A stretch of 64,000 nucleotides of DNA from Acidobacteriota bacterium (GTDB taxonomy: Bacteria; Acidobacteriota; UBA890; WLXD01), in contig CBDFKD010000002.1 in the NCBI GenBank assembly GCA_965248695.1, forward strand, positions 960,001 through 1,024,000, given 5' to 3'. Positions 3,287-31,097 of this stretch are shown piece after piece (the stretch's first letter is position 1; the number at the start of each line of letters is the position of its first letter). The translations under genes and the position numbers were made by a program. Under the pieces are notes generated by a model that was not told the DNA's origin, did not search any database, and worked only from the letters and a program-made list of their open reading frames with translations.

Positions 3287-3287
3287 G

Positions 3288-4434: not shown

Positions 4435-4663
4435 ATGGCAAAAGAAACATCAGAAATCCGCGAACACTGGGACAGGCACGCCGGCCGCGACGTTGACTCG
4501 AGCCCGGTCACTCACGCGGATCGGTCGTCGCGGATGGTCGTGCGGCTGGTACTGGGTAGGCCCCATGTTGATGATGGGAATCCTCGGCGAGTACCTGTGG
4601 CGTGCGTTGCACGAGGCCCGACGACGACCACGCTATCTGATCGAAGACGAGACCGGCGACTAG
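4435..4663 (+). pseudogene. Chimeric deletion scar: 5' end of an unknown gene joined to the degenerate, frameshifted 3' end of an ArnC/YfdH-like GT2 glycosyltransferase
   Basis: MAKETSEIREHWD... runs into SSRMVVRLVLG; the other frame gives MLMMGILGEYLWRALHEARRRPRYLIE*, the typical GT2 (ArnC-type) C-terminus. Confidence 0.75.
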
Positions 4664-4664
4664 C

Positions 4665-5675: not shown

Positions 5676-5692
5676 GACGCACCGGAGACGTT

Positions 5693-6886: not shown

Positions 6887-6916
6887 ACGGCGGTGGGCAC
6901 GGCAGAGCGGACGGAA

Positions 6917-9621: not shown

Positions 9622-9689
9622 CGCCGAGAATCGGGCAACAGCGACGTTGATTGCCCTCGACCATGCGGTGCGGGTACCGGCTTTCCGCA

Positions 9690-11285: not shown

Positions 11286-11305
11286 GCGGGTGCCTTTGTA
11301 ACGAC

Positions 11306-12391
11306 TCAATTCGTGTCGAGATCGATCAGCGGCAAATCGTGCTCGCGAATGTGCTCGAACAGATCGTGGCCCCGCGAGCCGTATTTCATCAGCATTCGGT
11401 ATGCGCTACCGGGGTCGCAAGCCGGAATCTCGGAGCCCTGGTCATTACGCAGGAAGAAGGCATTCACGCCTCGGGGCTCCGTCGTGACCAGCCGGTAACC
11501 CTTCTGCTCAGCGAGTCGGTTGAGAGCCTGAAGGGAGGCACCAAAGTAGATGTGTCTGCCGTCGATGCCGCCCGCGAACCGGTGTCGATCAAACTCGGGA
11601 TCGTACGGAACGACCGCGGCGCGGTCTGGGCCGAACAGCGAGTTATATTCGATGATCACCAGCCGCGGTGAGCAGACCGTCAAGGCCTCCCAAATCCAGT
11701 AGTCGTTGCCGTCGATGTCGTTGCTCAGGAGGTCAATCTCGCCCGAGCAGCCGCCGTCGCGGACGAGGTCGTCGAGGTTCTCGCGGGTGACCCAGTCGCC
11801 AGCGTAGGTGATCCTCCGTGCTCCGAAACGCATCTTCAGCTGGGCTAGGCGAGCCTCGTTGGCCTCGAGCATCATGCCGCTCCACCCGCATTCGCTGGCC
11901 AGAAACCCGGAGTTTCCGCCGTTGGAGCCGGCGCCGATCTCGACGAAGCGGCGCGAGTTCTCGCCGATCTTGTCGAAGATCGCGTGAATGATGCCATCCT
12001 CCTCGTTTTGGGAGAGAAGGCCGAAGCGGCGGGCGGTGAGACGATGGGGGTAAGAAAGCTCATCCGGATCGAGAAACAGGGCGCGTTGAATCGCCCGCGT
12101 CATGATCGAGACACGTCGCATATCGCCCTTCAGCCCACCGGCACCGACCACGCCGACGAGCCGTTCGAGGCGCTTCATCAAACGATGGTTTTGCAGATGG
12201 GTCTCTTTCAGCAGTTCGCGATTGCTCTTCGCTTGTTCCTCGAGCTCCACGAGGCGGTCGAGGATCTCGTTGGCGCTTCGTTGGAGCTCGATGGCCTGCT
12301 TGTCCGGGAGAGCGGTGCCTGGCTCGTACTTTCCCCCGGAGCTTGTGCCGCCCCACCCGAGCAGCGATTTGACTGACCTGGTTACCGACAT
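11306..12391 (-). CDS. FkbM-like SAM methyltransferase with N-terminal coiled coil
   Basis: SQNEEDGII, FVEIGAG, DLLSNDIDGNDYWIW, IIEYN, GVNAFF; heptad-like N-terminal segment. Confidence 0.65.
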   Translation of the reverse strand: MSVTRSVKSLLGWGGTSSGGKYEPGTALPDKQAIELQRSANEILDRLVELEEQAKSNRELLKETHLQNHRLMKRLERLVGVVGAGGLKGDMRRVSIMTRAIQRALFLDPDELSYPHRLTARRFGLLSQNEEDGIIHAIFDKIGENSRRFVEIGAGSNGGNSGFLASECGWSGMMLEANEARLAQLKMRFGARRITYAGDWVTRENLDDLVRDGGCSGEIDLLSNDIDGNDYWIWEALTVCSPRLVIIEYNSLFGPDRAAVVPYDPEFDRHRFAGGIDGRHIYFGASLQALNRLAEQKGYRLVTTEPRGVNAFFLRNDQGSEIPACDPGSAYRMLMKYGSRGHDLFEHIREHDLPLIDLDTN

Positions 12392-12403
12392 AGAAGTTTA
12401 AAA

Positions 12404-12418
12404 TGGCACGCTTTGTGC
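12404..12418 (+). promoter_or_regulatory. Putative sigma-54 promoter (-24/-12)
   Basis: TGGCACGCTTTGTGC has exact GG-N10-GC spacing and a TGGCACG -24 box; faces the 12718-26113 operon. Confidence 0.5.
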
Positions 12419-12717
12419 GCCCTGGCTAGCTGCCAGCTTTGGTTTCAAAGGTCGGCGAACAGCGACGTCGAACATGACCTGGATCCGGGGTGTGGCGGTT
12501 ACATCTGAAAGTTGGACGCCCAGCTGGCGCCAACAGATCGGTTCGTTTGTCAGGCGGTCTGGACTGTTTGCGCCGGCGTCTCTTTCGGCTAGAATTTGCG
12601 GTGCGGAACGCCTCCCTCTTCGACTCTTCTTTCGCAGATCCGGCCTGGCAGCCCGACCTCGACACCGCCGCGGCCCGCAGACGTGCGCGGCTCAAGTGAG
12701 ATCCGAGAAGATCTGTA

Positions 12718-13821
12718 TTGATTCTCACTTTTGAGCAACTTCGAGAGTACCGCGGCAAAGTCGCGATGGTCGACGGCGGTTTCGACCCGCTGCACGCCGG
12801 CCATGTGGCTTACTTCAAGGCCGCTGCCGAGTTGGGGACACCGGTGGTCTGCAATCTCGCGTCCGACCGATACGTGGCGGGTAAGCACGCTCCGTTCTTG
12901 CCCGAAGCTCAGCGCCTGCAGATTGTCGATTCGATCGGCACCATCGACCATGTGCACCTGAACGAGCACGACACCGAGACCATCCTGCGTGAGCTTCAAC
13001 CGAAGTACTACGTCAAGGGCAAGGACTGGGAGGGCCGTCTGCCCCCGGAGCAGGTCGAGATCTGCGCCGATCTCGGAATCGAGGTGGTTTACCTCGACAC
13101 GGTGCTCGAGTCGTCGACGCGCATCCTTGATGAGCACTACCGCTGCCGCGATACGACCCGGCTTGTGGAGGAATTCGAGGAATTCGTCCAGCAGCAGCAA
13201 CCAAGCAGCGCAGACGCATACCACGCGGAGTACTTCACTGAGGGTTGGCGCGACGACGGGCATGCCTACACGCTGGAGTCACGGCGTCAGCGCGAGGCCG
13301 ACCATCCGCAGGTGATCAAGGCCGTCTTCGCACCCGAGCGCGCCCTCGACATCGGTTGCGGGCCCGGGTTCCTGATGCTGTTCTTGCAGGAGCTCGGCAT
13401 CGAAGTAGCGGGCGTCGATCACAGTGCCGACGTGCTGGAGCTGGCCCCGCCCGAGGTACGCGATCGGATCCGAATTGCCGACATCGCCGACGCCAGCATT
13501 GCGGGGGATTCATTCGACCTGGTGATCTGCCGCGAGGTCTTGGAGCACCTGACCCTGCTACAGATACGCGTGGCGGTATCAAACATCTGTCGAGTGTCCT
13601 CCAGGTATGCTTACGTAACTACCCGGTTCAATCGGGATCCTGAGCATCTGTTTTCGGTACAGACGAAGGACGATCTCGATCCCACCCACATTACGCGTAT
13701 GAACAAAGACCTGTTGCGTCTGATGTTCGTGCTCGAAGGCTTCCGCTGCCGGTCGGACCTGGAGGCCAAGATCGATTGGCTCGGCAAGGGCCGGGTGCTG
13801 GTCTACGAGAAGGTGCCCTAG
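12718..13821 (+). CDS. Fusion of HxGH cytidylyltransferase-like domain and class I SAM methyltransferase
   Basis: GGFDPLHAGH, YVKGKDW and SSTRIL in the N-half; LDIGCGPG and FDLVICREVLEH in the C-half. Confidence 0.8.
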   Translation: MILTFEQLREYRGKVAMVDGGFDPLHAGHVAYFKAAAELGTPVVCNLASDRYVAGKHAPFLPEAQRLQIVDSIGTIDHVHLNEHDTETILRELQPKYYVKGKDWEGRLPPEQVEICADLGIEVVYLDTVLESSTRILDEHYRCRDTTRLVEEFEEFVQQQQPSSADAYHAEYFTEGWRDDGHAYTLESRRQREADHPQVIKAVFAPERALDIGCGPGFLMLFLQELGIEVAGVDHSADVLELAPPEVRDRIRIADIADASIAGDSFDLVICREVLEHLTLLQIRVAVSNICRVSSRYAYVTTRFNRDPEHLFSVQTKDDLDPTHITRMNKDLLRLMFVLEGFRCRSDLEAKIDWLGKGRVLVYEKVP

Positions 13822-13841
13822 CAGGGCACGATCGAAATCCC

Positions 13842-14822
13842 ATGGATAGTGTCCTCAGCTTCCATATGAACGGTCTCACCTGTGGTGTGGCCAAGTTCAA
13901 CCATCGTCTGGCCTCCGAGCTCGGGGTGCCGATTCACCAAATCTTCAACGACGATGCCGGCGGCTGCGCCGAGCCGCTGCTATCGATCAAGATCTCCGAG
14001 TTCAGCCCGCTCGACATCGACCGTCTGGCGCGGCTGCTGGATTCGGTGCCCTGGCGGGGCAGCTACCACATCTTCCTGCACGCCTGGTCGGGGACCGAGA
14101 TCGAGATCCGCATGCTGCGCGAGGCGCGCGCGGTGTTCTGCGGCAACACCGAGCTCGCCGAACAACTGACCGGCTTGCGCCCCGACGTACAGGCGGTGTG
14201 GTGCCCGGGCACTCTCGATGATGCCCGCGAGTTCGACCACTCGGGTCTGACCGTCTTCACTATGGGGATGGCCCACAAGATCCGCGCCCGCCACTACCAC
14301 CGGCTCAAGAATCTGCTCGACGCTACCGGTTCGCCCTACAGTCTCTATCTGTCGACCGCGCTGCACGAGAACACCAGCTTCGACGAAGAGTTCTCGGTGG
14401 CCTTTGAAGAGTTGCAGACGATCTTTGGCGACAGCGTACGTTTTCTCGGCTACCTGTCGGACGGCGCGGTATACAACTACCTCAAACAGACTGACTACTT
14501 CGCCGCATTCTTCGATCGTGGCGTGCGAGCGAACAACACCAGCGTGAACCTGGCGATGCAGTGCAGCTCGGTGGTAATCACCAACCTCGACGAGCACTCG
14601 CCCGGGTCGCTAGTACCGATGCACAACGTCATTGATATCAAGACCTGCGAGACTCTCCCGACGGAACCGGAACTGCTGGCACGGATCGGCCGCAACGCCG
14701 ACCAGATCGTCCACGAGCGCTACAGTTGGAAGGCGCTCGAGCGCAGGCTGCGAGGAGGGCATGAACCGCTTCCGGGAACCGCCATGTCGGCCGGCGCCCA
14801 GGGCGACGAGTTCAACGAGTAG
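13842..14822 (+). CDS. Hypothetical protein, GT4-like glycosyltransferase
   Basis: TCGVAKF, VRFLGYLSD and terminal RYSW.AL, as in GT-B enzymes. Confidence 0.5.
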   Translation: MDSVLSFHMNGLTCGVAKFNHRLASELGVPIHQIFNDDAGGCAEPLLSIKISEFSPLDIDRLARLLDSVPWRGSYHIFLHAWSGTEIEIRMLREARAVFCGNTELAEQLTGLRPDVQAVWCPGTLDDAREFDHSGLTVFTMGMAHKIRARHYHRLKNLLDATGSPYSLYLSTALHENTSFDEEFSVAFEELQTIFGDSVRFLGYLSDGAVYNYLKQTDYFAAFFDRGVRANNTSVNLAMQCSSVVITNLDEHSPGSLVPMHNVIDIKTCETLPTEPELLARIGRNADQIVHERYSWKALERRLRGGHEPLPGTAMSAGAQGDEFNE

Positions 14823-14864
14823 CAGGCATACTGCCGAGGGTCAGACCGAGAGGCGAGGAATACG

Positions 14865-15992
14865 ATGCCAGGCGAACTGACGATCGACGGTACGGTGGTC
14901 AACCAGGACAGCGACTGCTATGTCATCGCCGAGATCGGCCACAATCATCAGGGCGACCTCGAGACGTGCAAGAAGATGTTCCTGGAAGCGCTCAACTGCG
15001 GCTGCGACGCGGTCAAGCTGCAAAAGCGCGACAACGGGGCTCTGTTTACCGACGACGGCTACAACCGCCTGTACGACAACCGCAACAGCTACGGCACGAC
15101 TTACGGCGAGCATCGCGAGTTTCTGGAGTTCGAGCGTGACGAGTATCTCGAGCTGCAGAAGTACGCCGCCGAGATCGGCGTCACGTTCTTCGCCACCGCC
15201 TTCGACTTCCCCAGCGCTGACTTCCTGGCCGATCTCGATATGCCGGCGTACAAGCTCGCCTCGGGTGACATCAAGAGCACACCGTTGCTGGCCTACATTG
15301 CCCAGTTCGGCAAGCCGATGATCATCTCGACGGGCGCCGCCCTGATGGAGGACGTACAGCGAGCCTACGACACGATCATGCCGATCAACCCGCAGCTGTG
15401 TGTCATGCAGTGCACCGCCGGGTACCCGGCCGAGTTCGAGGAGCTCGACCTGGGCGTGGTAGCGACATACGCCGAGCAGCTTCCCGACATCGTGGTCGGG
15501 TACTCGGGCCACGACAACGGCATCGCGATGCCTCTGGCGGCCTACATCCTGGGCGCCCGCGTGATCGAGAAGCACTTCACGCTCAATCACACTTGGAAAG
15601 GCACCGATCACGCCTTCTCGCTGGAGCCCATCGGCATGCGCAAGATGGTGCGCGACCTGAAGCGCGCCCGCGTAGCGATGGGTGATGGGCAGAAGAAGTT
15701 CTACGAGAGCGAGGCCGGGGCCGGCATCAAGATGGGCAAGAAGATCGTGGCGGCGCGGGATCTTCCGGAGGGCACCATGATCGGCGCCGACGACCTGATA
15801 CTCAAGTCGCCCGGCGACGGACTGCCGCCCTACGAGATCGACAAAGTGATCGGCTCGAGCCTGAAGGTGCCGGTGGCTCGTGACGGCGATCTCCACATGG
15901 ATATGCTGCACGATCCCGACGAGTCGACAGACGGCCCGACCGCGGCAGACACCGAAGCTGCGGGAGATCACGAGGATGTTCGACCTCACTGA
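14865..15992 (+). CDS. neuB: NeuB-family PEP-dependent ulosonate synthase with C-terminal SAF/antifreeze domain
   Basis: IAEIGHNHQGD, AVKLQKRD, IISTG, GYSGH, IEKHFTL, KGTDH, K.PGDGLPP. Confidence 0.92.
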   Translation: MPGELTIDGTVVNQDSDCYVIAEIGHNHQGDLETCKKMFLEALNCGCDAVKLQKRDNGALFTDDGYNRLYDNRNSYGTTYGEHREFLEFERDEYLELQKYAAEIGVTFFATAFDFPSADFLADLDMPAYKLASGDIKSTPLLAYIAQFGKPMIISTGAALMEDVQRAYDTIMPINPQLCVMQCTAGYPAEFEELDLGVVATYAEQLPDIVVGYSGHDNGIAMPLAAYILGARVIEKHFTLNHTWKGTDHAFSLEPIGMRKMVRDLKRARVAMGDGQKKFYESEAGAGIKMGKKIVAARDLPEGTMIGADDLILKSPGDGLPPYEIDKVIGSSLKVPVARDGDLHMDMLHDPDESTDGPTAADTEAAGDHEDVRPH

Positions 15993-16776
15993 CCGCGTCG
16001 CGGTCGTTACCGGGGCTGCAGGCAAGCTGGGCCCGATCTGGGCCGAGGCGTTGCTGCAGGCCGGCGCCAGTGTCGCCGGGGTCGATCTACCGGACCTGGC
16101 TCAGTCAGACGGGCTCCAAGCCCTGTCGGACACCTACGGCGCGGAACGTCTGCGTTCGTACGGAGGCGACGTACTCGATCGCGACTCGCTGACGGACGCG
16201 CGCGCAGCCATCGAGAGGGATCTCGGACCGGTGTCCATCCTGGTCAACAACGCCGGCATCGACCAGCCTCCCGGCCAGGTGGAAGGTCACCATCTGCACG
16301 AGATCCCGGCCGACGCGGTGCGCAGGGTGCTCGACGTCAACGTGGTCGGGCTGTTCCAGGTGGCGCAGGTGTTCGGCGAAGCGATGGTGGAGCGTGGAGG
16401 AGGCTCGATTATCAACATCGGCTCGCTGTACGCGAGCGTCTCGCCGGACGCGCGCTTCTACGATCACCTGGCGGTGGACCCGCCGTTTCTGAAGCCGCCG
16501 GGCTACGGGGCCTCCAAAGCGGCAGTCGTCAACCTGACTCGCTATCTGGCCACCCACTGGGGCCCGCGTGGTGTGCGGGTCAACGCGCTCTCGCCGGGCG
16601 GCGTGCTCGGTGGACAGGACGCAGAGTTCCAGCGCAAGTTCAACGCTCGGGTGCCACTCGGGCGTATGGCCGAGGCGACGGATCTGGGGGGCCCGCTGGT
16701 GTTCCTGGCCTCCGACGCATCCTCGTATGTCAACGGAATCGAGTTGTGCGTCGACGGCGGCTACACAGCCTGGTAG
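15976..16776 (+). CDS. Classical SDR oxidoreductase
   Basis: TGAAGKLG, NNAG, YGASK, VNALSPGG, VDGGYTAW; ATG 15976 overlaps the neuB end. Confidence 0.9.
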   Translation: MFDLTDRVAVVTGAAGKLGPIWAEALLQAGASVAGVDLPDLAQSDGLQALSDTYGAERLRSYGGDVLDRDSLTDARAAIERDLGPVSILVNNAGIDQPPGQVEGHHLHEIPADAVRRVLDVNVVGLFQVAQVFGEAMVERGGGSIINIGSLYASVSPDARFYDHLAVDPPFLKPPGYGASKAAVVNLTRYLATHWGPRGVRVNALSPGGVLGGQDAEFQRKFNARVPLGRMAEATDLGGPLVFLASDASSYVNGIELCVDGGYTAW

Positions 16777-16809
16777 ACGTCTCACTGGCATCAAACGGAG
16801 GCAACGCCG

Positions 16810-18276
16810 ATGGGCGTGATTCCCGATCTCGTTCCCAACTTCATCGACGGCGAAGAGGTCGCGGCAGCATCCGGTGACCGATTCGACAACGTCAACCCCC
16901 ACGACGGGTCGGTGCTCTGTGAGGTCGCATCCTCTCAGACTGAGGATGTGCGTCGGGCAGTGGCAGCCGCCAAAGCGGCACAGGAGGCATGGGCGGATCT
17001 GACGCCGGTGGCGCGCGGCGATATCCTGCGCGAGGCGGCGTTGGCGATCCGCGATCGACGCGACGAGATCGCCGAGATCGTTGCTCTGGAGACGGGCAAG
17101 ACCATCGGTGAGGCGCGCGGCGAGACCATGGGCGCCTTCGAGCTCGGGATGTTCATGGCGGGCGAGGGTCGACGCTACTTCGGCCGCACCTCCACCAGCG
17201 CCAATCCGCACCGCGAGGTGGTCATCCTGCGTCAGCCTTTGGGCGTCTGTGGTTTGATCATCGCCGCCAACACACCGATCGCGAACGTCGCCTGGAAGGC
17301 GTTTCCTGCCCTGATCTGTGGCAACGCCGCGGTGATGAAAGCGGCGGAAGACACGCCGGCGACCGGCTGGATCGTGGCGAAGATCTTCCACGAGGTCGGA
17401 GTACCCGCCGGTGTGTTCAACATGATCCATGGATTCGGGCCGCAGGCAGGCCAACCGCTCGTAGAGCACCCGGATGTCGACCTCGTGAGTTTCACCGGCT
17501 CCGCCGCTGTCGGCCGCATGATCCAGCGCGTCGCCGGCGAGCGGCTCGCCAAGGTGATCCTGGAGTTGGGGGGCAAGAATCCGCTGGTGATCTGCGACGA
17601 CGCCGACCTCGACAAAGCCGCTGACGCGGTGGTGTTGTCGGCCTTCAGCAATGCCGGGCAGCGCTGTGCCTCGGGGAGCCGCATCATCGTCTTCGATGCG
17701 ATCTACGACGAGCTCAAGCAGCGTGTCGTCGACCGCATCGAGAGCCTCGAGCTCGGCAACACGGACGGGGCCGACCTGGGCCCGGTGATCAACGAGCGCC
17801 AGCTCACCAACATGCTGGGTTCGATCGAGGATGCCCGCGCCAGCGGAGCGCGCATAGTTACCGGCGGGCATCGGTTGGACGACGCCGCTCACCAGGGTGG
17901 TTTCTATCTGGCACCGACGCTCATCGAGGCGGCGGATCCCGGCGATGCGATCTCGCGCGATGAGCTTTTTGGCCCGATAACGTGCCTCTACCGTGTCGAA
18001 GGCTTCGACGAGGCCCTGCGACTGGCCAACGATTCACCGTTCGGTCTGACGGCTGCGATTCATACCGCGAACCTGCACCGGGCAATGCGTTTTGCGGACA
18101 AGATGCGTACCGGCCTGGTGTCGATCAACGGGTTCACCTATGGCAGCGAGCCCCACATGCCGTTCGGCGGGCTCAAGCAATCGGGCAACGGCTTGCGGGA
18201 GCCGGGGCCGGAGGCGCTGGACGTGTACTCGGCGCAGAAGAACGTCTTGATCCAGACCGATCCCTCCGCCGTGTAG
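16810..18276 (+). CDS. NAD(P)-dependent aldehyde dehydrogenase
   Basis: FTGS, LELGGKNP, GQRCAS, ELFGP, PFGGLKQSG. Confidence 0.92.
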   Translation: MGVIPDLVPNFIDGEEVAAASGDRFDNVNPHDGSVLCEVASSQTEDVRRAVAAAKAAQEAWADLTPVARGDILREAALAIRDRRDEIAEIVALETGKTIGEARGETMGAFELGMFMAGEGRRYFGRTSTSANPHREVVILRQPLGVCGLIIAANTPIANVAWKAFPALICGNAAVMKAAEDTPATGWIVAKIFHEVGVPAGVFNMIHGFGPQAGQPLVEHPDVDLVSFTGSAAVGRMIQRVAGERLAKVILELGGKNPLVICDDADLDKAADAVVLSAFSNAGQRCASGSRIIVFDAIYDELKQRVVDRIESLELGNTDGADLGPVINERQLTNMLGSIEDARASGARIVTGGHRLDDAAHQGGFYLAPTLIEAADPGDAISRDELFGPITCLYRVEGFDEALRLANDSPFGLTAAIHTANLHRAMRFADKMRTGLVSINGFTYGSEPHMPFGGLKQSGNGLREPGPEALDVYSAQKNVLIQTDPSAV

Positions 18277-18285
18277 GGCCTGTCT

Positions 18286-19059
18286 ATGCCCTCTGACCCA
18301 GACGTGGTGGCCCTGATTCCGGCGCGCGCCGGATCGAAACGGGTCGTCAACAAGAACATCCGGCCGTTAGCTGGCCACCCTTTGATCGCTTATGCGATCG
18401 CCTCGGCGCTCGAATCTCGCCTCTTTGGCACCGTCATCGTGTCGACCGACTCGGAGGAAATCGCCTCCATCGCTCGCCACTATGGCGCCGAGGTGCCGGT
18501 CCCCCGGCCGGGCGAATTCGGTGCCGATCATTCGCCCGACATCGAGTGGCTCGAGCACCTACTGCAACAACTCGGCGCCCAGGGCCGAACATGGGACTGC
18601 TTCGCCCTCCTGCGGCCGACAAGTCCGTTCCGCACCGCGGCTACACTGCGGCGTGCCTGGGACGAGTTCGTCGACGAGAAAGACGAGGTGGATTCGTTGC
18701 GGGCGGTGGAGAAGACGAAACTACATCCGGGTAAGATGTGGCTCGTCGAGGGCAGGCGAATGGTGCCGGCAATGACCGAGATCGGTGGCCAGCGCAGCCG
18801 GCCGGAGCAACCTTGGCACAGCACGCCCTATCAGGCGCTTCCACCGGTGTACTCGCAGAACGCAAGCCTCGAGATCGGATGGTCGCGAGTCGTCCTGGAG
18901 TCGAGGACTATCGCGGGCACCATGATCATGCCCTTCTTCACCGACAGCGAAGAGGGCTTCGACATCAACGACGAGATCGATTGGAGCGTCGCTGAGGAGC
19001 TTGTCCGGCGCGGCGCCGCAACGCTGCCGTGCGTTCCCGACGCTCCTTGGAACGGCTGA
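18286..19059 (+). CDS. neuA: CMP-ulosonate (acylneuraminate) cytidylyltransferase
   Basis: IPARAGSKRVVNKN, VSTDS, LRPTSPFR, DINDEID. Confidence 0.9.
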   Translation: MPSDPDVVALIPARAGSKRVVNKNIRPLAGHPLIAYAIASALESRLFGTVIVSTDSEEIASIARHYGAEVPVPRPGEFGADHSPDIEWLEHLLQQLGAQGRTWDCFALLRPTSPFRTAATLRRAWDEFVDEKDEVDSLRAVEKTKLHPGKMWLVEGRRMVPAMTEIGGQRSRPEQPWHSTPYQALPPVYSQNASLEIGWSRVVLESRTIAGTMIMPFFTDSEEGFDINDEIDWSVAEELVRRGAATLPCVPDAPWNG

Positions 19060-19070
19060 GGGAGAAAAGC

Positions 19071-21125
19071 TTGCCGAGTTCGGAGACCCATACCGACGAG
19101 AGCGTCGACAACGCCGCGCGCTTGAGTCAGATCCTCGAGAAACGCGCCGGCGGGCTCTGTCTGGTGCCCAACTCGGGATTCGACCTTCTGGCGAAGGCCG
19201 ACCTGTCGCCCGAGCTGCGAGCCCAGCTATTCGCGACCTATTGCCGGCTGAACATCCTCTACATGGTGGCGCGCGCGGGTTCGGGCCACCCCGGAACCTG
19301 CCTCAGCTCGATCGACTTGATGTCGTGGCTGTATCTGAACGAGATCCGAGGCCTGGATGACGACCCCGGCAGCGCCGACGTGTTCTTCTCGTCCAAGGGA
19401 CACGATGCACCGGCGTTTTATACCGTGCTGATCGGGCTCGGGCTCCTCGACGCCGACTACTTACACAAGCTACGCCGTCTCGGCGGTCTGCCCGGCCATC
19501 CGCACATCGAGACGCCGCACGTCTACGCTGGCACCGGCTCGCTCGGAATGGGCATATCCAAGGCCAAGGGCATGATCACCGCCAACCGATTGCTCGGCCA
19601 CGACCGTCATGTCTACGTCATGACCGGTGACGGTGAGCTCCAGGAGGGACAGATCTGGGAGTCTCTGTCGACCGCCGCCAGAGAGCGCATGGGCGAGCTG
19701 ACGGCGATCGTCGATCACAACAAGATCCAGTCCGATACCTGGGTCGCCGACGTCAGCGATCTCGGCGATGTAGGCGCCAAGTTCGCCGCCTTCGGCTGGG
19801 AGGCGGCCCGTTGCGACGGCCACGATGTCGGCGCGATCGGCGCGATCATGCGGCGTTTCCGTGGCATCACCGATCGCCCCAAGGTGCTCGTGGCGGACAC
19901 CGTCAAAGGCAAGGGCGTGACCTTCATGGAGGGGCCGCAAGCCCTCGAGGGCGGCGAGCTCTATGCCTTCCACAGCGGTGCCCCGAGCGTCGATCAGTAC
20001 GATGCCGCCATCCGTGAAGTGCTCGGCCGCGCGCTGATGTTGCACGCGCAAGCCGACATTGACGACCTCGAGATCGAATGGCTCGAACGTGACGTGCACG
20101 CCAAGCACAGCGGGTTCGGGAACGTCCATCGGTTGATGGCGGCCTACGAAGACGAACTGGTCAAACAGGCCCAAACGAACGACAAGATCGTGGTGTTCAA
20201 CGCCGATCTGGTCAAAGACTGCGGCTTGATCGCCTTCCAGGAGCAGTTCCCCGAGCGTTTCATCGAGTGCGGTATCGCCGAGCAGGACATGGTCTCGCAG
20301 GCGAGCGGACTGGCACAGATGGGCATGCTACCGATGTGTCACTCGTTTGCGTGCTTCCTGTCGACGCGACCGAATGAGCAGATCTACAACGCCGCCACGG
20401 AACACGAGAAGGTGATCTATGTCGGTTCGCTGGCGGGCTTGCTGCCCGGCGGGCCGGGACACTCGCACCAATCGGTACGGGACATCTCGGCGCTGGGGGC
20501 AGTTCCGGACCTGTGGCTGGTGGAGCCGTGTCAGGAATCGGAGGTACGGCAGGTCCTCGGCTGGGCAATCAACGACAACGCCTACAGTACCTACATCCGG
20601 CTGTGCTCGATGGGCTGGGATATGCCCTTCGACCTACCGGAGGACTACGTGCTTACCCCTGGCAAGGGGGTCGTGGTTCGTGAGGGCGACGATGGCGCCG
20701 TGTTCGCCTACGGACCTTGGCTGCTCTCCAACGCCTACGAGGCCGCCGAGCTATTGGCGCGCGAGCGCTCGATCGACCTGCAGGTGGTCGATTTGCCGTG
20801 GCTGAATCGCGTCGACGATCAGTGGCTCGTCGAGGTCATCGGCGACCGGCCATGGGTGGTCGCCCTGGACAACCACTACGAGCACGGTGGGCAGGCCGAG
20901 ATGCTACTGGCAAGGATCGCCGAGTCGGGTGTCCGTGTCGGCGCCGGGCGACTCGGCATGGGTGCCATACCCGAATGCGGCTCGACTCAGGAAGTGCTCG
21001 AGCATCATGGCCTCGACGCCCTCAACCTGGCGCGCCGGGTAGCCGAGCTGATGCAGGGCTCGGGCAACATCGATGCGGAAGCGGACGTCTCGGGTACGCG
21101 TACCAGCGATATGGGACCACAGTGA
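19071..21125 (+). CDS. Transketolase-family TPP enzyme, single chain
   Basis: AGSGHPG, SKGH, LPGHP, TGSLGMG, GDGELQEG, GIAEQDMV; TTG start after GGGAG. Confidence 0.85.
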   Translation: MPSSETHTDESVDNAARLSQILEKRAGGLCLVPNSGFDLLAKADLSPELRAQLFATYCRLNILYMVARAGSGHPGTCLSSIDLMSWLYLNEIRGLDDDPGSADVFFSSKGHDAPAFYTVLIGLGLLDADYLHKLRRLGGLPGHPHIETPHVYAGTGSLGMGISKAKGMITANRLLGHDRHVYVMTGDGELQEGQIWESLSTAARERMGELTAIVDHNKIQSDTWVADVSDLGDVGAKFAAFGWEAARCDGHDVGAIGAIMRRFRGITDRPKVLVADTVKGKGVTFMEGPQALEGGELYAFHSGAPSVDQYDAAIREVLGRALMLHAQADIDDLEIEWLERDVHAKHSGFGNVHRLMAAYEDELVKQAQTNDKIVVFNADLVKDCGLIAFQEQFPERFIECGIAEQDMVSQASGLAQMGMLPMCHSFACFLSTRPNEQIYNAATEHEKVIYVGSLAGLLPGGPGHSHQSVRDISALGAVPDLWLVEPCQESEVRQVLGWAINDNAYSTYIRLCSMGWDMPFDLPEDYVLTPGKGVVVREGDDGAVFAYGPWLLSNAYEAAELLARERSIDLQVVDLPWLNRVDDQWLVEVIGDRPWVVALDNHYEHGGQAEMLLARIAESGVRVGAGRLGMGAIPECGSTQEVLEHHGLDALNLARRVAELMQGSGNIDAEADVSGTRTSDMGPQ

Positions 21126-21832
21126 CGCTGGTCTTGCTCTGGGACATCGACGGCACCCTCCTGACCACCGAGCGGGCCGGCATCTTTGCCTGGGAAGATG
21201 CCATCGAGCAAGTTCTCGATCAGCGAGTGTCGCTGCAGGACTATCAGACGGCGGGCCTGACCGATGTGGAGATCGCTGCGCTGCTGGTGACCAAGGTATG
21301 CGAGCAAGATGACGGCGCTCGAGCAGCGCAACTGCTGCGACGCTATGAGCGTCTGCTGCCATCAAGATTGCACCGTCGGAAAGGTCGGGCCTTGCCCGGC
21401 GTGCGAGAGATACTCGAGGCTACCTGTGACCGCGAGGATGTCCTGTCGATCCTGCTCACAGGGAACACGGCTGCCGGCGCCCGGGCCAAGTTGGAACACT
21501 ACGAACTGGACGGGTACTTCAGCAGCGGCGCCTTCGCTGATGGCGCCAAGGATCGCCCGACAATCGCCCGCCGTGCGTTGAAGATCGCCGAGGCGGAGCT
21601 CCGCGGCCTCCAGCGGTGCAACGCCTTCGTGATAGGTGACACGCCGCACGATATTCAGGCCGGCAACGCCATCGGCGTGCGGACGGTCGCCGTAGCCACG
21701 GGTGGGTACACTGCTACTCAGCTGGAAGGATACGACCCGTGGTGGCTACTCGAGCAGCTGCCGACGGCAGATAGTTTCCTCGGCCATCTCGAGGCTTCAG
21801 CGCTCGAGCCCAGGGCAACGCCGGATTGTTGA
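21122..21832 (+). CDS. HAD-family phosphatase
   Basis: LWDIDGTL, LLTGN, IGDTPHD; GTGA coupling to the transketolase. Confidence 0.88.
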   Translation: MTLVLLWDIDGTLLTTERAGIFAWEDAIEQVLDQRVSLQDYQTAGLTDVEIAALLVTKVCEQDDGARAAQLLRRYERLLPSRLHRRKGRALPGVREILEATCDREDVLSILLTGNTAAGARAKLEHYELDGYFSSGAFADGAKDRPTIARRALKIAEAELRGLQRCNAFVIGDTPHDIQAGNAIGVRTVAVATGGYTATQLEGYDPWWLLEQLPTADSFLGHLEASALEPRATPDC

Positions 21833-23604
21833 GCGTGGATCCTCGCCTCAAGCAGCTAGTCAAGCGATTCGGGCTCACGAAGCGCCTGGTTGCAAACAAA
21901 CGGGGGCGCGAAACCCGGCAGTTTCGCGACTGGTGGCGGCGGCATCTTACCGACGGCGCCAGCACACCGGACCCGGACGAGCCCAGGGCCCCGACCGGTC
22001 CCACACAGGCCGCAGCACCGCGAGTGCTGATGGCGACCAGCCTGGGAGGCTGGCAGCCCGGGACCCGGCTGGACACAGTTGTAGCCCACGCGCTCCGCTT
22101 GCGCGGCGCCGAGGTGGAGGGCTGGCTGTGCGACCAGGCGCTGCCGGCATGTCAGCTCGCCGATGCCTATTTCTACCCGCGTCAGGAGGCGTTTCTCCGC
22201 AACGGTCCGATCGAGCTGTGTCGCACCTGTGCCGGCCCTGCCGAGGAGCTCTTCGAAGCCGCGCGAATCCCACTGCACCGACTGAGCAGCACGCTGACTG
22301 AGCCGCATGCCGCCGAGGCGGAGCGCGTGTCGCGCGAGCTGGAGATCGACGAGATCCTGGCCCTCGAGATCGACGGCGTGACCATCGGCGAGCACGCGCT
22401 GTCCGGCGCCCTGAGGTTCTTCGCGAGCGGCGACCTACACGACGAGCCGCAGGGGGAGGCGATTCTCCGGGCCTATCTGCGTGCTGCACTTCGGACGTTC
22501 TTTTCCTTTCGTGAGCTCCTCGACCAAACGCACTTCGACTGCGTCGTTCTGCACCACGGCATTTACGTCCCCCAAGGACCGATCGCCGATCTCTGCCGGC
22601 AGCGGAGCGTGCGCGTCGTCACCTGGCACCCCGCCTACCGGCGCAACTGCTTTACCTTCGCGGAGTCCGATACCTACCACCGGGCAATGCTCGTCGAGCC
22701 GACCTCAGTGTGGGAGCAGATGGACTGGTCGGAGGCTCATGAAGCCGCGATCATGGACTACCTCAAGAGCCGGTGGCGGGGCTCGGAGGACTGGATCTCC
22801 TTCAACGATGCACCCGAGGACAACCTGCGCAAGATCTCGGATGAGCTCGGCCTGGATCCAGACAAGCCCTGGATCGGATTGCTCACCACCGTCATGTGGG
22901 ACGCACGGTTGCACTATCCCACCAACGCCTACGAGAACGTCTGGTACTGGGTGCGCGACACGATCGAGTACTTCGCGCAGCGGCCCGACCTGCAGCTCAT
23001 CATCCGAGTGCACCCGGCGGAGGTGAGGGGACGTCTGCCAGCCCGCCAACGGATGGACGACGAGATCAAGCGCGCCTTTCCCACCCTACCGAACAACGTC
23101 GTCGTGATACCCGCAGAGAGCAGAATCAGCAGCTACGTCGTTCTTGCCAACTGCAACGCAGCGCTCATTTACGCCACCAAGATGGGCATCGAGCTGACGG
23201 CGACCGGCATTCCCACGCTAGTGGCAGGCGAAGCCTGGATACGCAACAAGGGATTCAGTTTGGATGCCGGATCACCAGCGGAGTACCGCGAGCTGCTGGA
23301 CCGACTCCCACTGCCCGAGCGCATGTCGCCGGAACAGGTGGCCCACGCCCGCAAGTACGCTTTCCACTACTTCTTCCGACGCATGATCCCGCTGCAGTTC
23401 GTGTCGCAGGGATCCAGCTCATCGCTGGGGTTCGAGGTCGACATCGAGCGGCTGGACGACCTCCAACCGGGCCGGTTCCGCGGCCTCGACGTTATCTGTG
23501 ACGGCATCCTCGAAGCCGGGAACTTCGTCTACCCAGCGGAAACAGAGATCCGCGACAAACGGCTCGGTATCAACGAGCCCGAGCCGCACCAGGCCGTGCA
23601 CTGA
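21826..23604 (+). CDS. Capsule_synth (KpsS/KpsC-like) putative CMP-ulosonate transferase
   Basis: IRVHP motif, TKMGIEL, G.P.LVAG; Cys cluster CDQALPAC...CRTC; same operon as neuAB. Confidence 0.6.
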   Translation: MLSVDPRLKQLVKRFGLTKRLVANKRGRETRQFRDWWRRHLTDGASTPDPDEPRAPTGPTQAAAPRVLMATSLGGWQPGTRLDTVVAHALRLRGAEVEGWLCDQALPACQLADAYFYPRQEAFLRNGPIELCRTCAGPAEELFEAARIPLHRLSSTLTEPHAAEAERVSRELEIDEILALEIDGVTIGEHALSGALRFFASGDLHDEPQGEAILRAYLRAALRTFFSFRELLDQTHFDCVVLHHGIYVPQGPIADLCRQRSVRVVTWHPAYRRNCFTFAESDTYHRAMLVEPTSVWEQMDWSEAHEAAIMDYLKSRWRGSEDWISFNDAPEDNLRKISDELGLDPDKPWIGLLTTVMWDARLHYPTNAYENVWYWVRDTIEYFAQRPDLQLIIRVHPAEVRGRLPARQRMDDEIKRAFPTLPNNVVVIPAESRISSYVVLANCNAALIYATKMGIELTATGIPTLVAGEAWIRNKGFSLDAGSPAEYRELLDRLPLPERMSPEQVAHARKYAFHYFFRRMIPLQFVSQGSSSSLGFEVDIERLDDLQPGRFRGLDVICDGILEAGNFVYPAETEIRDKRLGINEPEPHQAVH

Positions 23605-23607
23605 GCC

Positions 23608-24612
23608 ATGCGGCTGTCGGTCTGTTTGACCTACTACAGCGGGCTCGAGTACTTGCACGCCTGTCTTGCCTCGATTCGCGCCAACGCCCCGGCATGCAGC
23701 CACGAGATCATCGTCGTTGACGACGCGTCCGCGCTTTCCTGCGCAGAAACGGTCGGCGAGGCGGCGCCGGGGACGGTTCTCATCCGCAACCCTATGAATC
23801 TCGGGTTCGCTGCCGCCAACAACGTTGCGTGGCGCGCGTCCACGGGCGAGTTTGTCTTGTTCCTCAACAGCGACACGAAGGTACTGCCCGGAGCCCTCGA
23901 CGAGCTGGTCGCGTATCTCGAAGCGCACGCGGAGGCCGGCGTCGTCGGACCGATGGTGCTCAACGGTGACGGCAGCTTCCAGCCACAGTGTCGCCGCGGA
24001 CGCCTCACGCCACTCAGCGGTCTGACCTACTCGCTGCGTCTGGACCGGTTGTTCCCGCACAATCGCACCGTGTCCGAGTATCTGATGCGGTACACGGACA
24101 AGGAGCAGACGCAGCCGGTTCGCGCGGTGTCGGGCTGCTGCATGCTGTTCCGACGCGCCGTCCTCGACAGCGGTGGCGGGTTCGACGAGACGCTGCACCA
24201 GTACGGCGAAGATCTGGATCTTTGCTACCGAGCCGGCAATGCCGGTTGGAAGGTCGTCTATTCTCCCGGGGCGCGGATCATCCACTATGGCGGCCAGGGT
24301 GGCACCAACGTTCGCGTCGTCCGCTCGCTCTACTACTTCCATCGCTCGCTGTGGATGATATTTCTCCGCTACAACACGAACCGAGTGTTTCACCTGTACT
24401 CTTGGTTCGTGATCTTGATGCTTGCCGCCCGTTTCGGATTGTCGGCGAGCATGCTGCTGTTGGGACAGCGTCGGGCCGGTACACGTAAGGGAGCCCCGCG
24501 ATTCGCGCGCGAGACGACGCCGGCGACAACCCTGTCGGGCCAAGCTGACGAGCAGGACCGGATGACAGGAACAAATGGCGATACGGATCTCTCCCGAGAA
24601 CACGACTCCTGA
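23608..24612 (+). CDS. GT2 glycosyltransferase (WbbL/rhamnosyltransferase-like)
   Basis: IIVVDDAS, NLGFAAANN, LNSD, SGCCML, YGEDLDLC. Confidence 0.88.
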   Translation: MRLSVCLTYYSGLEYLHACLASIRANAPACSHEIIVVDDASALSCAETVGEAAPGTVLIRNPMNLGFAAANNVAWRASTGEFVLFLNSDTKVLPGALDELVAYLEAHAEAGVVGPMVLNGDGSFQPQCRRGRLTPLSGLTYSLRLDRLFPHNRTVSEYLMRYTDKEQTQPVRAVSGCCMLFRRAVLDSGGGFDETLHQYGEDLDLCYRAGNAGWKVVYSPGARIIHYGGQGGTNVRVVRSLYYFHRSLWMIFLRYNTNRVFHLYSWFVILMLAARFGLSASMLLLGQRRAGTRKGAPRFARETTPATTLSGQADEQDRMTGTNGDTDLSREHDS

Positions 24613-26113
24613 TCTCCCTGCGCGCCACAGCTCGGTGACCACGAGGGCAGCCCCGCTCGGCCTGCACCGCACCGAGCGACGCCTGTTTCTCCTCGTGGTG
24701 GATCTTGTAGCGATCAACACGGCGCTGCTTACCTACTTGATTGCGCGCGGAGATCACGCCGGTCTCGGGTTGCCGGAAAGCACTCCGCTGGATCTGAATC
24801 TCCTGTGGGCCAGACCCGGGTGGTTCTTGCTGCTTTCCGCCGCCTGGCTCCTCGCTGCCCAGGCGTTCGACGCTTATCGTCTGCAGACCGCAAATCGCTT
24901 CGCCAGCTCGGCGGCGGCTGTGCTCAAGAGCGCCATCATCGTCTTGCTGTTCTATGTCGCGGTGCCCTACCTCACGCCCACGCTACCGCCGTCACGGAGC
25001 TACCTGATCGTTCTGTTCGGCACCACGATCGGCTTACTCTTGCTCGTGCGGTCGGTTTACGTGCTGGCGCTCGGTCGCTCCGTATTCCGCCGTCCGACGC
25101 TGATCGTCGGAACCGGTTGGGCAGGCCAGACCATCGCTCGGGAGCTGCTGCAGAACGACGACGGAACGCACCTGATCGTCGGCTTCATAGGCGACAAGAA
25201 GACGCCACCCGGCACGCGACTGCAGATCGCAGACACCAGGGACGGCAAGGCCGGGATTGCCCCAATCGATCAGCGGGCCCTCACCGTCCTGGGCGATAGC
25301 GCGTCGCTGAAGGATCTGGTTGAACGGCACCACATTCGCACGATCGTGCTCGCCGCGACCGACGAGCTGGATCCGGAGCTGCTGCGGGTGCTCATGGATT
25401 GCCTGGAGTTCGGAGCTCAGATCATTCCGATGAGCCAACTGTACGAGCGCCTTACCGGCCGGGTTCCGGTCGAGCACGTCGGCGACGACTGGCATCTGGC
25501 GATGCCCCTGGAGCATCCCGGCACGGGTACGTTGCGGCCGCTGGCAAAGCGCGCCTTCGACCTGGTGTCAGCGAGCGTCGGTCTGATCCTGCTGGCGCCC
25601 TTCGTGCCGCTCATAGCTTTGGCGATCCGAATCGAGTCTCGTGGCCCGATCTTCTACACCCAACGTCGCGTCGGCAAAGGCGGTCGGGTGTTCAAAGTCT
25701 TCAAGTTCCGCTCCATGCGGTCGGGGGCCGAGGAGGACGACGCCGTCTGGTCGCAACCGGGTGATGCCAGGGTCACCAGAGTCGGCGCGATCCTGCGCGC
25801 AACGCACGTCGACGAGTTCCCTCAGTTCCTCAACATTCTGCGTGGAGAGATGAGTGCGGTCGGCCCGCGTCCGGAGCGACCGGAGTTCCTGGAGCGCCTG
25901 ATCGCCGACATTCCGTTCTACACAGTGCGCCACGCAGTAAGACCGGGAATGGCGGGATGGGCGCTGGTGAATTGCGGCTACGGCTCATCGATCGACGACG
26001 CCCTGCGCAAGCTGCAATACGACCTGTACTACATCAAGCACCAGTCTGTGTCTCTCGATCTGGTTATTCTCTTGAAGACGATCTTGCACAGTTTGGGGTT
26101 GCAGGGACGCTGA
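24575..26113 (+). CDS. Polyprenyl-phosphate hexose-1-phosphate (priming) transferase, WcaJ/WbaP family
   Basis: N-terminal TM helices; KRAFD, KFRSM, DEFPQ..N..RGEMS.VGPRPERP, DLYYI. Confidence 0.92.
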   Translation: MAIRISPENTTPDLPARHSSVTTRAAPLGLHRTERRLFLLVVDLVAINTALLTYLIARGDHAGLGLPESTPLDLNLLWARPGWFLLLSAAWLLAAQAFDAYRLQTANRFASSAAAVLKSAIIVLLFYVAVPYLTPTLPPSRSYLIVLFGTTIGLLLLVRSVYVLALGRSVFRRPTLIVGTGWAGQTIARELLQNDDGTHLIVGFIGDKKTPPGTRLQIADTRDGKAGIAPIDQRALTVLGDSASLKDLVERHHIRTIVLAATDELDPELLRVLMDCLEFGAQIIPMSQLYERLTGRVPVEHVGDDWHLAMPLEHPGTGTLRPLAKRAFDLVSASVGLILLAPFVPLIALAIRIESRGPIFYTQRRVGKGGRVFKVFKFRSMRSGAEEDDAVWSQPGDARVTRVGAILRATHVDEFPQFLNILRGEMSAVGPRPERPEFLERLIADIPFYTVRHAVRPGMAGWALVNCGYGSSIDDALRKLQYDLYYIKHQSVSLDLVILLKTILHSLGLQGR

Positions 26114-29473: not shown

Positions 29474-29633
29474 GGCCAACTCCTGTTGACGGGCCGCACA
29501 ATTGCACCAGGGCAGCGTGCGTGCGCCGAGCCGCGCTATGGTGCCGATCGCTACGATACAGTTCAAGCCGCTCGGCGGATCTACAGACCTCTGCCGCCGC
29601 GGCCAAGAGATCCTGTTCTCTCGGAGGACCTTG

Positions 29634-30914: not shown

Positions 30915-31097
30915 GACTCACGGCGCGGATCGATGGGGACCCGACAGGAATCCGGCCATACGGCGAGCTCCTGGCCAGGACCGGTCGGTTGACACCCGGT
31001 ACGTACAGGGATTTGCTTGGCGACGCTACTTTACAAACCGTGCTGGCGCCGCTTCTCGGCGCGTCGAAGCGCCGCTCGGCCCGCCTCCGAGGACGAC

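Follow-up and report, generated by a model that had tools for sequence, protein, structure and literature searches.

What does a bacterium make with a sialic acid-type synthase and its cytidylyltransferase when the genes for these two enzymes are interleaved with genes for three others that have no place in any known pathway? The question is raised by seven genes of an Acidobacteriota bacterium (GenBank assembly GCA_965248695.1, contig CBDFKD010000002.1), located at 14865-23604, all on the plus strand, of the window, i.e. the whole stretch of 64,000 nucleotides that was analysed (positions 960,001 to 1,024,000 of the contig; coordinates below are those of the window unless stated otherwise). 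In order, these genes encode a NeuB-family synthase, a short-chain dehydrogenase/reductase (SDR), an aldehyde dehydrogenase (ALDH), a NeuA-type cytidylyltransferase, a transketolase-like enzyme (TK), a haloacid dehalogenase (HAD)-superfamily phosphatase and a transferase with a predicted GT-B fold. Keto-deoxy acid sugars such as the sialic acids, keto-deoxyoctulosonic acid (Kdo), keto-deoxynonulosonic acid (Kdn), legionaminic acid (Leg) and pseudaminic acid (Pse) shape cell-surface recognition, and their biosynthesis is generally regarded as well charted; the SDR, ALDH and TK of the five-gene core (hereafter the trio) are the enzymes that fit none of them. We report that this cassette is, with high confidence, a conserved and previously undescribed module, and that it encodes a pathway to a cytidine monophosphate (CMP)-activated keto-deoxy acid with an unprecedented, conserved three-enzyme tailoring module around a phosphate-blind transketolase. 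More tentatively, and with rather less than even confidence, we propose from the sequences that the cassette produces a dicarboxylic keto-deoxy sugar with a shortened chain, for which a C9 acid would be trimmed by two carbons and then oxidised, and that this sugar is activated with CMP and attached to a surface glycan.

The block is as the initial annotation described it, with seven tightly spaced or overlapping genes of the domain content given there (Pfam and NCBIfam scans of each gene). Specifically, successive genes are separated by -17, +33, +9, -31, -4 and -7 bases, i.e. never by more than 33 bases, and the catalytic motifs are intact in the SDR (TGxxGxxG and YGASK), ALDH (ELGGK and GQRC), HAD (DIDGT) and TK (GDGE and AEQ) proteins. 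The genes around it extend the system beyond what was noted then, since the block sits within an array of 11 genes (12718-26113).

For the comparison with other genomes, one genome per species was scanned with TK (595 relatives) and the gene neighbourhoods of the best 80 loci were examined, with partner genes identified by tblastn using the window proteins; related genomes are not independent samples. The initial annotation had named such a synteny comparison as a check on the cassette, and the outcome is conservation, with the core order NeuB-SDR-ALDH-NeuA-TK recurring in 21 of the 80 loci, from many phyla. Because the same order recurs in this way we judge the grouping of the genes to be far above chance. 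Among the 55 loci in which TK is at least 40% identical to that of the window (the family loci), SDR is present in 45, NeuB or NeuA in 44, ALDH in 39 and all four partners in 25, and for the 30 of these flanked by 5 kb or more in each direction the corresponding numbers are 26, 25, 20 and 15; among the 25 loci with a more distant TK, all four partners were detected in one (L070). Carriers are environmental bacteria that belong to the Vicinamibacterales and other Acidobacteriota, Gemmatimonadales (Gemmatimonadota), Alpha-, Gamma- and Deltaproteobacteria, Polyangiaceae (Myxococcota) and Rokubacteria, as well as to the Phycisphaerales (Planctomycetota), Actinomycetes, Chloroflexota, Cyanobacteriota and Saccharibacteria. 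Close to the window genome TK was found in five of 40 relatives (one of four in the same genus, one of six in the rest of the family, three of 15 in the order and none of 15 elsewhere in the phylum), a patchy distribution that is usual for surface-glycan genes. In three genomes of the same order (G015, G016 and G017, of the small-genome genus g9) the TK homologue has one in-frame TGA inside the matched stretch, which could be the stop codon of an overlapping upstream gene, a gene boundary or recoding.

The enzyme that sets the cassette apart most clearly is TK (19029-21125; the real start is perhaps downstream of 19029). It consists of Transketolase_N, Transket_pyr and Transketolase_C domains and keeps the motifs SGHPG, KGH, GHP, GDGE, N, AEQ and SHQ, and it thus shares with canonical transketolase (EC 2.2.1.1) and 1-deoxyxylulose 5-phosphate (DXP) synthase the three domains, the thiamine diphosphate (ThDP) and metal motifs, the catalytic His and the activating Glu. 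Unlike these enzymes, it scores under the NCBIfam cut-offs for both (372.9 bits with the best transketolase model, cut-off 488), and five of seven transketolase substrate-recognition residues are replaced in the consensus of the family. Its best match among solved structures is human transketolase (4kxu, 221.9 bits). Residues were compared in two independent alignments, one to 4kxu and the other to the canonical transketolase of the same genome plus 38 family members. We take Arg357/358, Ser384/385, His461 and Arg520 of transketolases to bind the substrate phosphate, and Asp469 to bind the C2 hydroxyl of the acceptor. The equivalents of all five are replaced in the window TK and in the consensus of the 38 members, and both alignments agree on this; PMC4601599 gives these positions as substrate-binding residues. 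A canonical tkt gene is present elsewhere in the genome (Transketolase_N, 493.5 bits) and the TK of the cassette is therefore an extra paralogue. Decarboxylation of a 2-keto acid by TK, as in DXP synthase or E1-type enzymes, was also considered and rejected, since it would destroy the group needed by NeuA.

The two other trio members belong to families that would fit on either side of such an enzyme. The SDR (15976-16776; adh_short_C2, 158.8 bits; its ATG at 15976 lies inside a longer open reading frame (ORF) starting at 15880) is a classical oxidoreductase with galactitol dehydrogenase (2wdz), gluconate 5-dehydrogenase (1vl8) and KduD (4z9y) as its nearest solved relatives, and D-mannonate oxidoreductase and gluconate 5-dehydrogenase are among its best NCBIfam families. 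Galactitol dehydrogenase, gluconate 5-dehydrogenase and KduD oxidise the secondary hydroxyl that adjoins a terminal CH2OH, and the product of such an oxidation is a terminal ketol, i.e. the donor motif of transketolases. The ALDH (16810-18276; PF00171, 515.3 bits) is a generic NAD(P)-dependent, non-acylating enzyme; alpha-ketoglutaric semialdehyde dehydrogenase and 2,5-dioxovalerate dehydrogenase rank first among its NCBIfam matches (444 and 435 bits, respectively), although neither score reaches its cut-off. Enzymes of these two families convert an omega-aldehyde into a 2-keto-3-deoxy diacid.

NeuB and NeuA bracket the SDR and ALDH genes and point to a CMP-activated ulosonic acid without naming it. 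NeuB (14865-15992) has the PF03102 TIM-barrel (252.6 bits) and the C-terminal SAF domain (37.9 bits) of the nonulosonic acid synthase superfamily of phosphoenolpyruvate (PEP)-condensing enzymes, with SpsE (1vli) and NmNeuB (1xuu) as the nearest solved structures; SpsE, NmNeuB and PseI score alike against it (150, 139 and 128 bits, respectively), which does not allow a specificity to be assigned. NeuA (18286-19059; CTP_transf_3, 69.3 bits) has the domain of NeuA/PseF-type CMP-ulosonic acid synthetases, and the KdsB models score far under their cut-offs. That the gene set stands apart from the Neu, Leg, Pse and Kdn pathways, as initially annotated, is borne out by equivalog scores under the cut-offs throughout, i.e. 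277.6 against 399.65 for NeuB (NeuB_NnaB, TIGR03569), 217.4 against 340.25 for PseI (TIGR03586) and 131.2 against 205.7 for PseF. The phosphatase (21122-21832; HAD_2, 53.7 bits, with the domain beginning near 21122) has only weak NCBIfam matches, PpaX-like or phosphoglycolate phosphatase-like, and is not of the KdsC type. A phosphatase of the same type follows TK in the window and in loci L003, L006, L047 and L048, and in L008 the homologue is located approximately 9 kb from TK.

Where the trio occurs in other genomes says more about what it may act on. The loci fall into two classes by gene order: in class A (29 loci, the window included) the order is ALDH-NeuA-TK, and in class B (13 loci) SDR-TK-ALDH is followed by other genes, the gene after ALDH being a UDP-N-acetylglucosamine 2-epimerase, usually followed in turn by NeuB and/or NeuA. 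Gene calls in these GC-rich loci were made by family-size-weighted ORF selection. NeuC is present in none of the 29 class A loci vs 10 of the 13 in class B, and a phosphatase in 15 of 29 vs none of 13. Nine of the 15 class A phosphatases belong to the small KdsC/YrbI family (TIGR01670, 113.7 with a cut-off of 106.95) and also match the Kdn-9-phosphate phosphatase model, and a phosphorylated Kdn/Kdo-type route, as was initially suggested, is accordingly plausible for class A. The median identity to the window TK is 51% in both classes; for NeuB it is 62% in class A vs 33% in class B and for NeuA 57% vs 31%. L018, the single class B representative scanned with NCBIfam, has a true NeuC equivalog (331.6, cut-off 235.9), and in L018, L043 and L050 a near-equivalog NeuB (362.7 vs 399.65) and NeuA are located next to NeuC. 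One class B subtype (L012, L015, L023 and L032, also L007 and L011) has the gene set 2-hydroxyacid dehydrogenase, epimerase/dehydratase, SDR, TK, ALDH, NeuC and NeuA. Judging from these patterns, class A bears the marks of a phosphorylated, Kdn-like route and class B those of a route through N-acetylmannosamine (ManNAc), and the trio appears as a portable tailoring module joined to two NeuB/NeuA lineages. Because the two NeuB routes to which the trio is joined have mutually exclusive substrate supplies, it would most simply act on the polyol (glycerol-like) tail that is common to both NeuB products.

The pathway that we propose runs as follows. NeuB would condense PEP with an aldose of the hexose 6-phosphate type to a Kdn-like C9 3-deoxy-2-ulosonate 9-phosphate, and the HAD phosphatase would free the terminal alcohol. 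The SDR would then oxidise the next-to-last hydroxyl (C8), and this would generate a terminal CH2OH-CO-CHOH ketol, the motif of a transketolase donor. TK, with a pocket that has no phosphate site, would cleave between C7 and C8, taking off C8 and C9 as a C2 unit and leaving an aldehyde at C7, which ALDH would oxidise to the carboxylate; the result would be a 3-deoxy-hept-2-ulosaric acid with the formula of Dha (3-deoxy-D-lyxo-hept-2-ulosaric acid), C7H10O8. Finally, NeuA would form the CMP-sugar and the KpsC-like GT-B enzyme would transfer the sugar to a glycan assembled by the neighbouring GT2, phosphotransferase and Wzy-type gene products. This linear trimming pathway leaves no conserved gene without a function.

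The stereochemistry of the trimming was considered as well. By Fischer-projection reasoning both 8-keto-Kdn and 8-keto-Neu5Ac (the 8-keto form of N-acetylneuraminic acid, Neu5Ac) would have the D-threo configuration (C7 and C6) required of transketolase donors; moreover, the oxygen at C6 is the ring oxygen of the pyranose, which would be consistent with the missing Asp, a residue whose usual role is to bind a hydroxyl at this position. We derive for the product, whether it comes from Kdn or from Neu5Ac, a predicted L-arabino configuration and not the D-lyxo configuration of Dha, and because of this we claim only a 3-deoxy-hept-2-ulosaric acid. The initial annotation had named an ulosaric acid such as Dha as the product; a 3-deoxy-2-ulosaric acid is still the most coherent candidate, while the Dha configuration does not follow, with L-arabino predicted from Kdn.

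Several observations weigh against the trimming pathway. The sequences give enzyme classes, from which we infer the order of the steps, the substrates and the product. A transketolase needs a C2 acceptor and with the phosphate site gone none can be named. For TK itself, the equivalent of His261/263 is uncertain, as neither alignment places the invariant FHSGAP motif on the canonical HG.P motif, although FHSGAP is probably the counterpart of the HG.P histidine. Classes A and B were set by gene order after the loci had been viewed (41 loci and the window were sorted), and 15 of the 55 family loci, with short contigs or incomplete partner sets, are outside both. No partner was found within 10 kb on either side of TK in L010, L019 and L033, and in L039 TK is adjoined only by a homologue of the GT-B transferase. 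Six class B loci (L007, L011, L012, L015, L023 and L032) have no NeuB in the fetched stretches with two NeuB queries, and these either have NeuB elsewhere or use another aldolase; in L007, L011 and L015 the contig ends within approximately 2.5 kb of TK. ALDH is missing from 16 of the 55 family loci, including compact Chloroflexota operons with the order NeuB-KdsC-SDR-NeuA-TK (L045 and L059), and the carboxylate is therefore not universal. L059 carries both a KdsC-like HAD and a second HAD; the HAD after TK in this locus belongs to another family and is not matched by that of the window. Because the window HAD is not of the KdsC type and both kinds occur together in L059, it may have a role other than dephosphorylating the NeuB product. 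In addition, amino sugar genes upstream of the block, or a NeuC encoded elsewhere, could in principle feed the window NeuB with an amino sugar (see below).

The gaps in ALDH bear directly on the alternative that survives best. According to this, the trio does act on the tail of the acid with a different outcome: TK would extend an omega-aldehyde by a C2 unit, or would cleave the chain while ALDH detoxifies the glycolaldehyde, and the sugar would keep an aldehyde or have it reduced or aminated later. We consider this unlikely. It shares with the trimming pathway the linkage of the module to two NeuB lineages, and it gains from the ALDH-less operons in Chloroflexota and Streptomyces, in the latter of which a class III aminotransferase takes the place of ALDH. 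Specifically, in Streptomyces sp. NBC_01237 (L083; NZ_CP108509.1, 809988-829850, locus at 3562-17990) NeuB-SDR-TK is followed by genes for an RmlD-like protein, a HAD_2 protein, a class III aminotransferase and a LuxR-type regulator, with hydroxyphenylglycine-type genes (glyoxalase-fold dioxygenase, FMN dehydrogenase and aminotransferase) on the other flank, and neither ALDH nor NeuA was found in this locus. It looks like a secondary-metabolite cluster in which the same module leads to an amino sugar acid, and it fits an omega-aldehyde intermediate that is open to amination instead of oxidation. Extension by TK, however, would leave ALDH without an aldehyde and would need a primary-alcohol oxidase, none of which is evident, and in most loci ALDH is part of the core, between SDR and NeuA.

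The route in the initial annotation has no chain shortening: TK would make a dedicated aldose phosphate, NeuB would extend it, HAD would dephosphorylate the product and SDR with ALDH would oxidise the primary alcohol. The main evidence against it comes from TK, in which, family-wide, none of the four phosphate-binding residues is kept and the acceptor Asp is lost as well. Moreover, in 10 of the 13 class B loci the trio is accompanied by NeuC, with ManNAc as the NeuB substrate already provided and without a phosphatase. An aldose phosphate as the product of TK is unlikely, because its phosphate-binding residues are lost and in class B NeuC already feeds NeuB. Neither does a primary alcohol agree with the SDR, since the solved enzymes closest to it act on a secondary alcohol of sugar acids and polyols. 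That all enzyme classes of this route are present, that class A loci often have a phosphatase (15 of 29) and that the ALDH is of a type yielding 2-keto-3-deoxy diacids speak in its favour, as does a precedent in the 3-amino-5-hydroxybenzoic acid (AHBA)/rifamycin pathway, where a dedicated transketolase feeds a PEP-condensing enzyme; taken together, we regard this route as distinctly unlikely.

If the SDR and TK instead acted before NeuB, a hexonic acid would be converted to a tetruronic acid semialdehyde, e.g. gluconate via 5-ketogluconate, and NeuB would give the heptulosaric acid directly by condensing it with PEP. This early trimming, which we consider very improbable, has the same chemistry as the proposed tartrate pathway (see below), a non-phosphorylated acid substrate that suits the TK pocket, and a product that could be a C7 diacid of the Dha type. 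It leaves ALDH without a role, as a competitor for the NeuB substrate, and yet ALDH is found in 39 of the 55 family loci; nor does the phosphatase have an obvious role, and where class B loci carry NeuC, NeuB is supplied with a substrate in any case.

With respect to the C2 branch, as in yersiniose-type sugars, that the initial annotation gave as an alternative for the ThDP enzyme, the evidence is neutral; the enzymes known to add such branches come from other ThDP families. Finally, that the trio serves to decorate an ordinary nonulosonic acid with a small acyl or acid group (e.g. of the glycolyl or glyceroyl type) is hardly to be expected, for while transketolase-type enzymes can deliver C2 glycolaldehyde units in natural-product pathways and N-glycolyl and N-glyceroyl nonulosonic acids exist, the core is not accompanied by a conserved coenzyme A ligase, carrier protein or acyltransferase in any of the loci examined, and the sole acetyltransferase-like gene of the window is located 13 kb upstream.

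How does the proposed trimming pathway relate to known systems? The Kdn pathway of Bacteroides thetaiotaomicron reportedly consists of a Kdn-9-phosphate synthase, a Kdn-9-phosphate phosphatase and a CMP-Kdn synthetase; the cassette likewise combines a NeuB-family synthase, a HAD phosphatase and a NeuA-type enzyme without NeuC, and it differs in the three additional conserved enzymes (SDR, TK and ALDH) and in a phosphatase of the HAD_2 and not the KdsC type. The Neu5Ac pathway (NeuC-NeuB-NeuA) has its counterpart in the class B relatives, which carry NeuC, and in L018, L043 and L050 also NeuB and NeuA, beside the trio. The window block, in contrast, has no NeuC and its NeuB and NeuA are under all equivalog cut-offs, and the trio is without a counterpart in the Neu5Ac pathway. 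Closest in chemistry are the late steps proposed for L-tartrate, in which 5-keto-D-gluconate is cleaved by transketolase to tartaric semialdehyde, which is then a substrate of an aldehyde dehydrogenase (PMC7970118 and PMC12016104). That route draws on the three enzyme classes of the trio, and its chemistry runs in the same sequence (idonate or gluconate 5-dehydrogenase, then transketolase, then tartaric semialdehyde dehydrogenase). There, however, a housekeeping transketolase is thought to act promiscuously and the pathway genes are not clustered, whereas the paralogue of the cassette is dedicated and remodelled, shares an operon with NeuB and NeuA, and has a proposed C9 keto-deoxy substrate.

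Among open-licence PMC papers and bioRxiv preprints we found none describing the NeuB-SDR-ALDH-NeuA-TK cluster and none giving a biosynthetic route to Dha or any ulosaric acid; "CMP-Dha" does not occur in them and the matches for ulosaric acids are all plant, algal or food papers. The initial annotation had held that Dha is without a defined biosynthetic route, and this agrees with two reviews, one from 2025, in the plant cell-wall field, in which the pathway and the nucleotide form of Dha are listed as unknown (PMC12168206) and one from 2012 with the same statement on the pathway (PMC3355719). Dha has been reported in the lipopolysaccharide of Rhizobiaceae (Russa 1991, as a reference entry in PMC5713287). 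One class A locus is from this family (L013, Ciceribacter sichuanensis); no link to Dha could be drawn there. A search of plasmids with TK turned up a single true family member, in Streptomyces; the remaining 18 matches are ordinary or split transketolases with approximately 32% identity, of which 16 are from Agrobacterium or Rhizobium. Since these are ordinary transketolases, they too provide no link to the Dha of Rhizobiaceae.

The last gene of the block (21826-23604) encodes a protein of 592 amino acids that has no Pfam or NCBIfam match at E<=0.001, and its original label as a transferase was a guess, which is now backed by a predicted structure. Its AlphaFold2 model (mean predicted local distance difference test score, pLDDT, 82.9) has a GT-B fold and in Foldseek comparisons the highest target TM-scores are those of KpsC (0.53-0.55), with the other GT-B entries listed at 0.28-0.36. 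A profile built from ten homologues and compared with PDB sequences gave six matches with E<=1, five of which are KpsC (E 0.04-0.8), and Atlas, based on a protein language model, relates the protein, at 0.99, to clusters in which 38-41% of the members have Capsule_synth (KpsC/KpsS). Moreover, the homologue in L005 matches PF05159 (E=6.4e-4), and in eight related loci a homologue follows TK. We propose, with the model and these matches in mind, that it is the KpsC-like transferase for the CMP-sugar. With the KpsC/KpsS beta-Kdo transferases (Capsule_synth, GT107) it would have in common the GT-B fold and a CMP-keto-deoxy acid donor (proposed here); it differs from them in its marginal sequence signal (E=0.04, no Pfam match), its single module and its N-terminal helix. 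In two alphaproteobacterial loci, L005 (7457-9992) and L020, a gene for an aldolase-like protein of the DHDPS/NanA family and a Capsule_synth-like gene are located between NeuA and TK. The Capsule_synth-like insert supports the KpsC-like assignment.

The remaining genes of the array flank the block on both sides, all on the plus strand. The first (12718-13821) encodes a fusion of an N-terminal nucleotidyltransferase (CTP_transf_like, similar to RfaE domain II; NCBIfam rfaE_dom_II 71.9 bits, under the cut-off) and a C-terminal S-adenosylmethionine-type methyltransferase (Methyltransf_11/25, Pfam), which may modify the sugar, e.g. by O-methylation; among the related loci, only those of the Vicinamibacterales type (L002, L003, L006 and L027) keep it beside the cassette. 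The second (13776-14822, start codon uncertain) encodes a protein of 348 amino acids without Pfam or NCBIfam matches, with a syntenic homologue in the same four loci. Atlas relates it at 0.99 to uncharacterised Acidobacteriota clusters and, as a lead only, at 0.96 to GT4 clusters, and it may be a GT4-like glycosyltransferase. Downstream of the block are genes for a GT2 glycosyltransferase (23608-24612; Glycos_transf_2, 83 bits) and a polyprenyl-phosphate glycosylphosphotransferase (24575-26113; Bac_transf, 208.3 bits; TIGR03025 EPS_sugtrans, 345.7, above the cut-off of 295.55), the latter being the enzyme that initiates the assembly of repeat units of exopolysaccharides and capsular polysaccharides. 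Directly upstream of the array are a Wzy-like gene and three minus-strand ORFs without annotation. With the Wzy-like gene, the GT2 and the glycosylphosphotransferase around the cassette, we therefore assign the array, by gene content, to a surface-polysaccharide locus (exopolysaccharide or capsule). The three consecutive ORFs (421, 539 and 361 codons, at 8425-12391 between the Wzy-like gene and the cassette) have no Pfam match, the second also no NCBIfam match, and homologues of them occur in some related loci (F34, F45 and F44); their products are probably membrane or export components of the polysaccharide machinery. Between 12300 and 26500 no promoter-like sites were predicted (mean of shuffled sequences 2.2), and the six terminator-like sites are not above expectation (7.4).

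Further upstream, 8-13 kb from the block (1748-6886, plus strand), there are genes for a NeuD-like acetyltransferase, a GFO enzyme similar to UDP-N-acetylglucosamine 3-dehydrogenase, two DegT aminotransferases and a LegB-like 4,6-dehydratase. All of them score under their equivalog cut-offs, with 214 vs 475 for the LegB-like enzyme, 262 and 299 vs 423.5 for the PseC/LegC-like aminotransferases and 86 vs 160.8 for the NeuD-like protein, and neither LegG nor PseG was found within the 64-kb window; the genes probably supply the same polymer with a di-N-acetylated amino sugar. NeuC (Epimerase_2) is absent from the block and from the window, and the sole match in the genome (C2:2867562-2868608) is beside a second NeuB. 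The initial annotation had found the block devoid of neuC and of precursor genes for Pse or Leg. This holds for the block, with the qualification that LegB/PseC/LegC-like genes are present upstream and NeuC at a distant locus. That distant locus (L081; G000:C2:2859000-2878900, genes at 2291-13831, minus strand) is a second sialic acid-like locus approximately 1.9 Mb from the window, with the order GT4, ATP-binding cassette (ABC) exporter, NeuB2, NeuC, methyltransferase, D-2-hydroxyacid dehydrogenase, acetolactate synthase-like ThDP enzyme, GFO/IDH/MocA oxidoreductase, NeuA-like cytidylyltransferase and sulfotransferase. Here, too, a dehydrogenase and a ThDP enzyme are located beside NeuB, NeuC and NeuA, the ThDP enzyme being of another family than TK, and the locus may lead to a nonulosonic acid with a C2 branch or some other modification. 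Elsewhere in the window (29502-32606) two adjacent genes encode serine hydrolases with a beta-lactamase fold, with methyl acetate hydrolase-like and D-aminopeptidase-like proteins as the best matches and scores far under the beta-lactamase family cut-offs; these appear ordinary and unrelated to the cassette.

In its widest form, which we regard as doubtful, our proposal would make the phosphate-blind transketolase together with SDR and ALDH a C2-trimming module that converts C9 sialic-type acids to CMP-activated C7 diacids, is distributed over at least 10 phyla, has independently become part of both Kdn-like and Neu5Ac-like pathways, and represents the first route to this class of compounds and the first transketolase to act on a nonulosonic acid. 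Cultured carriers exist in Ciceribacter sichuanensis (L013) and Streptomyces sp. NBC_01237 (L083). If the trimming is true, ThDP-dependent C-C cleavage would be a new reaction type in sugar-acid biosynthesis and the acids concerned a new class of substrates for the transketolase superfamily, and the cassette would provide the first testable genetic route to heptulosaric acids as well as enzymes for making CMP-Dha-like donors.

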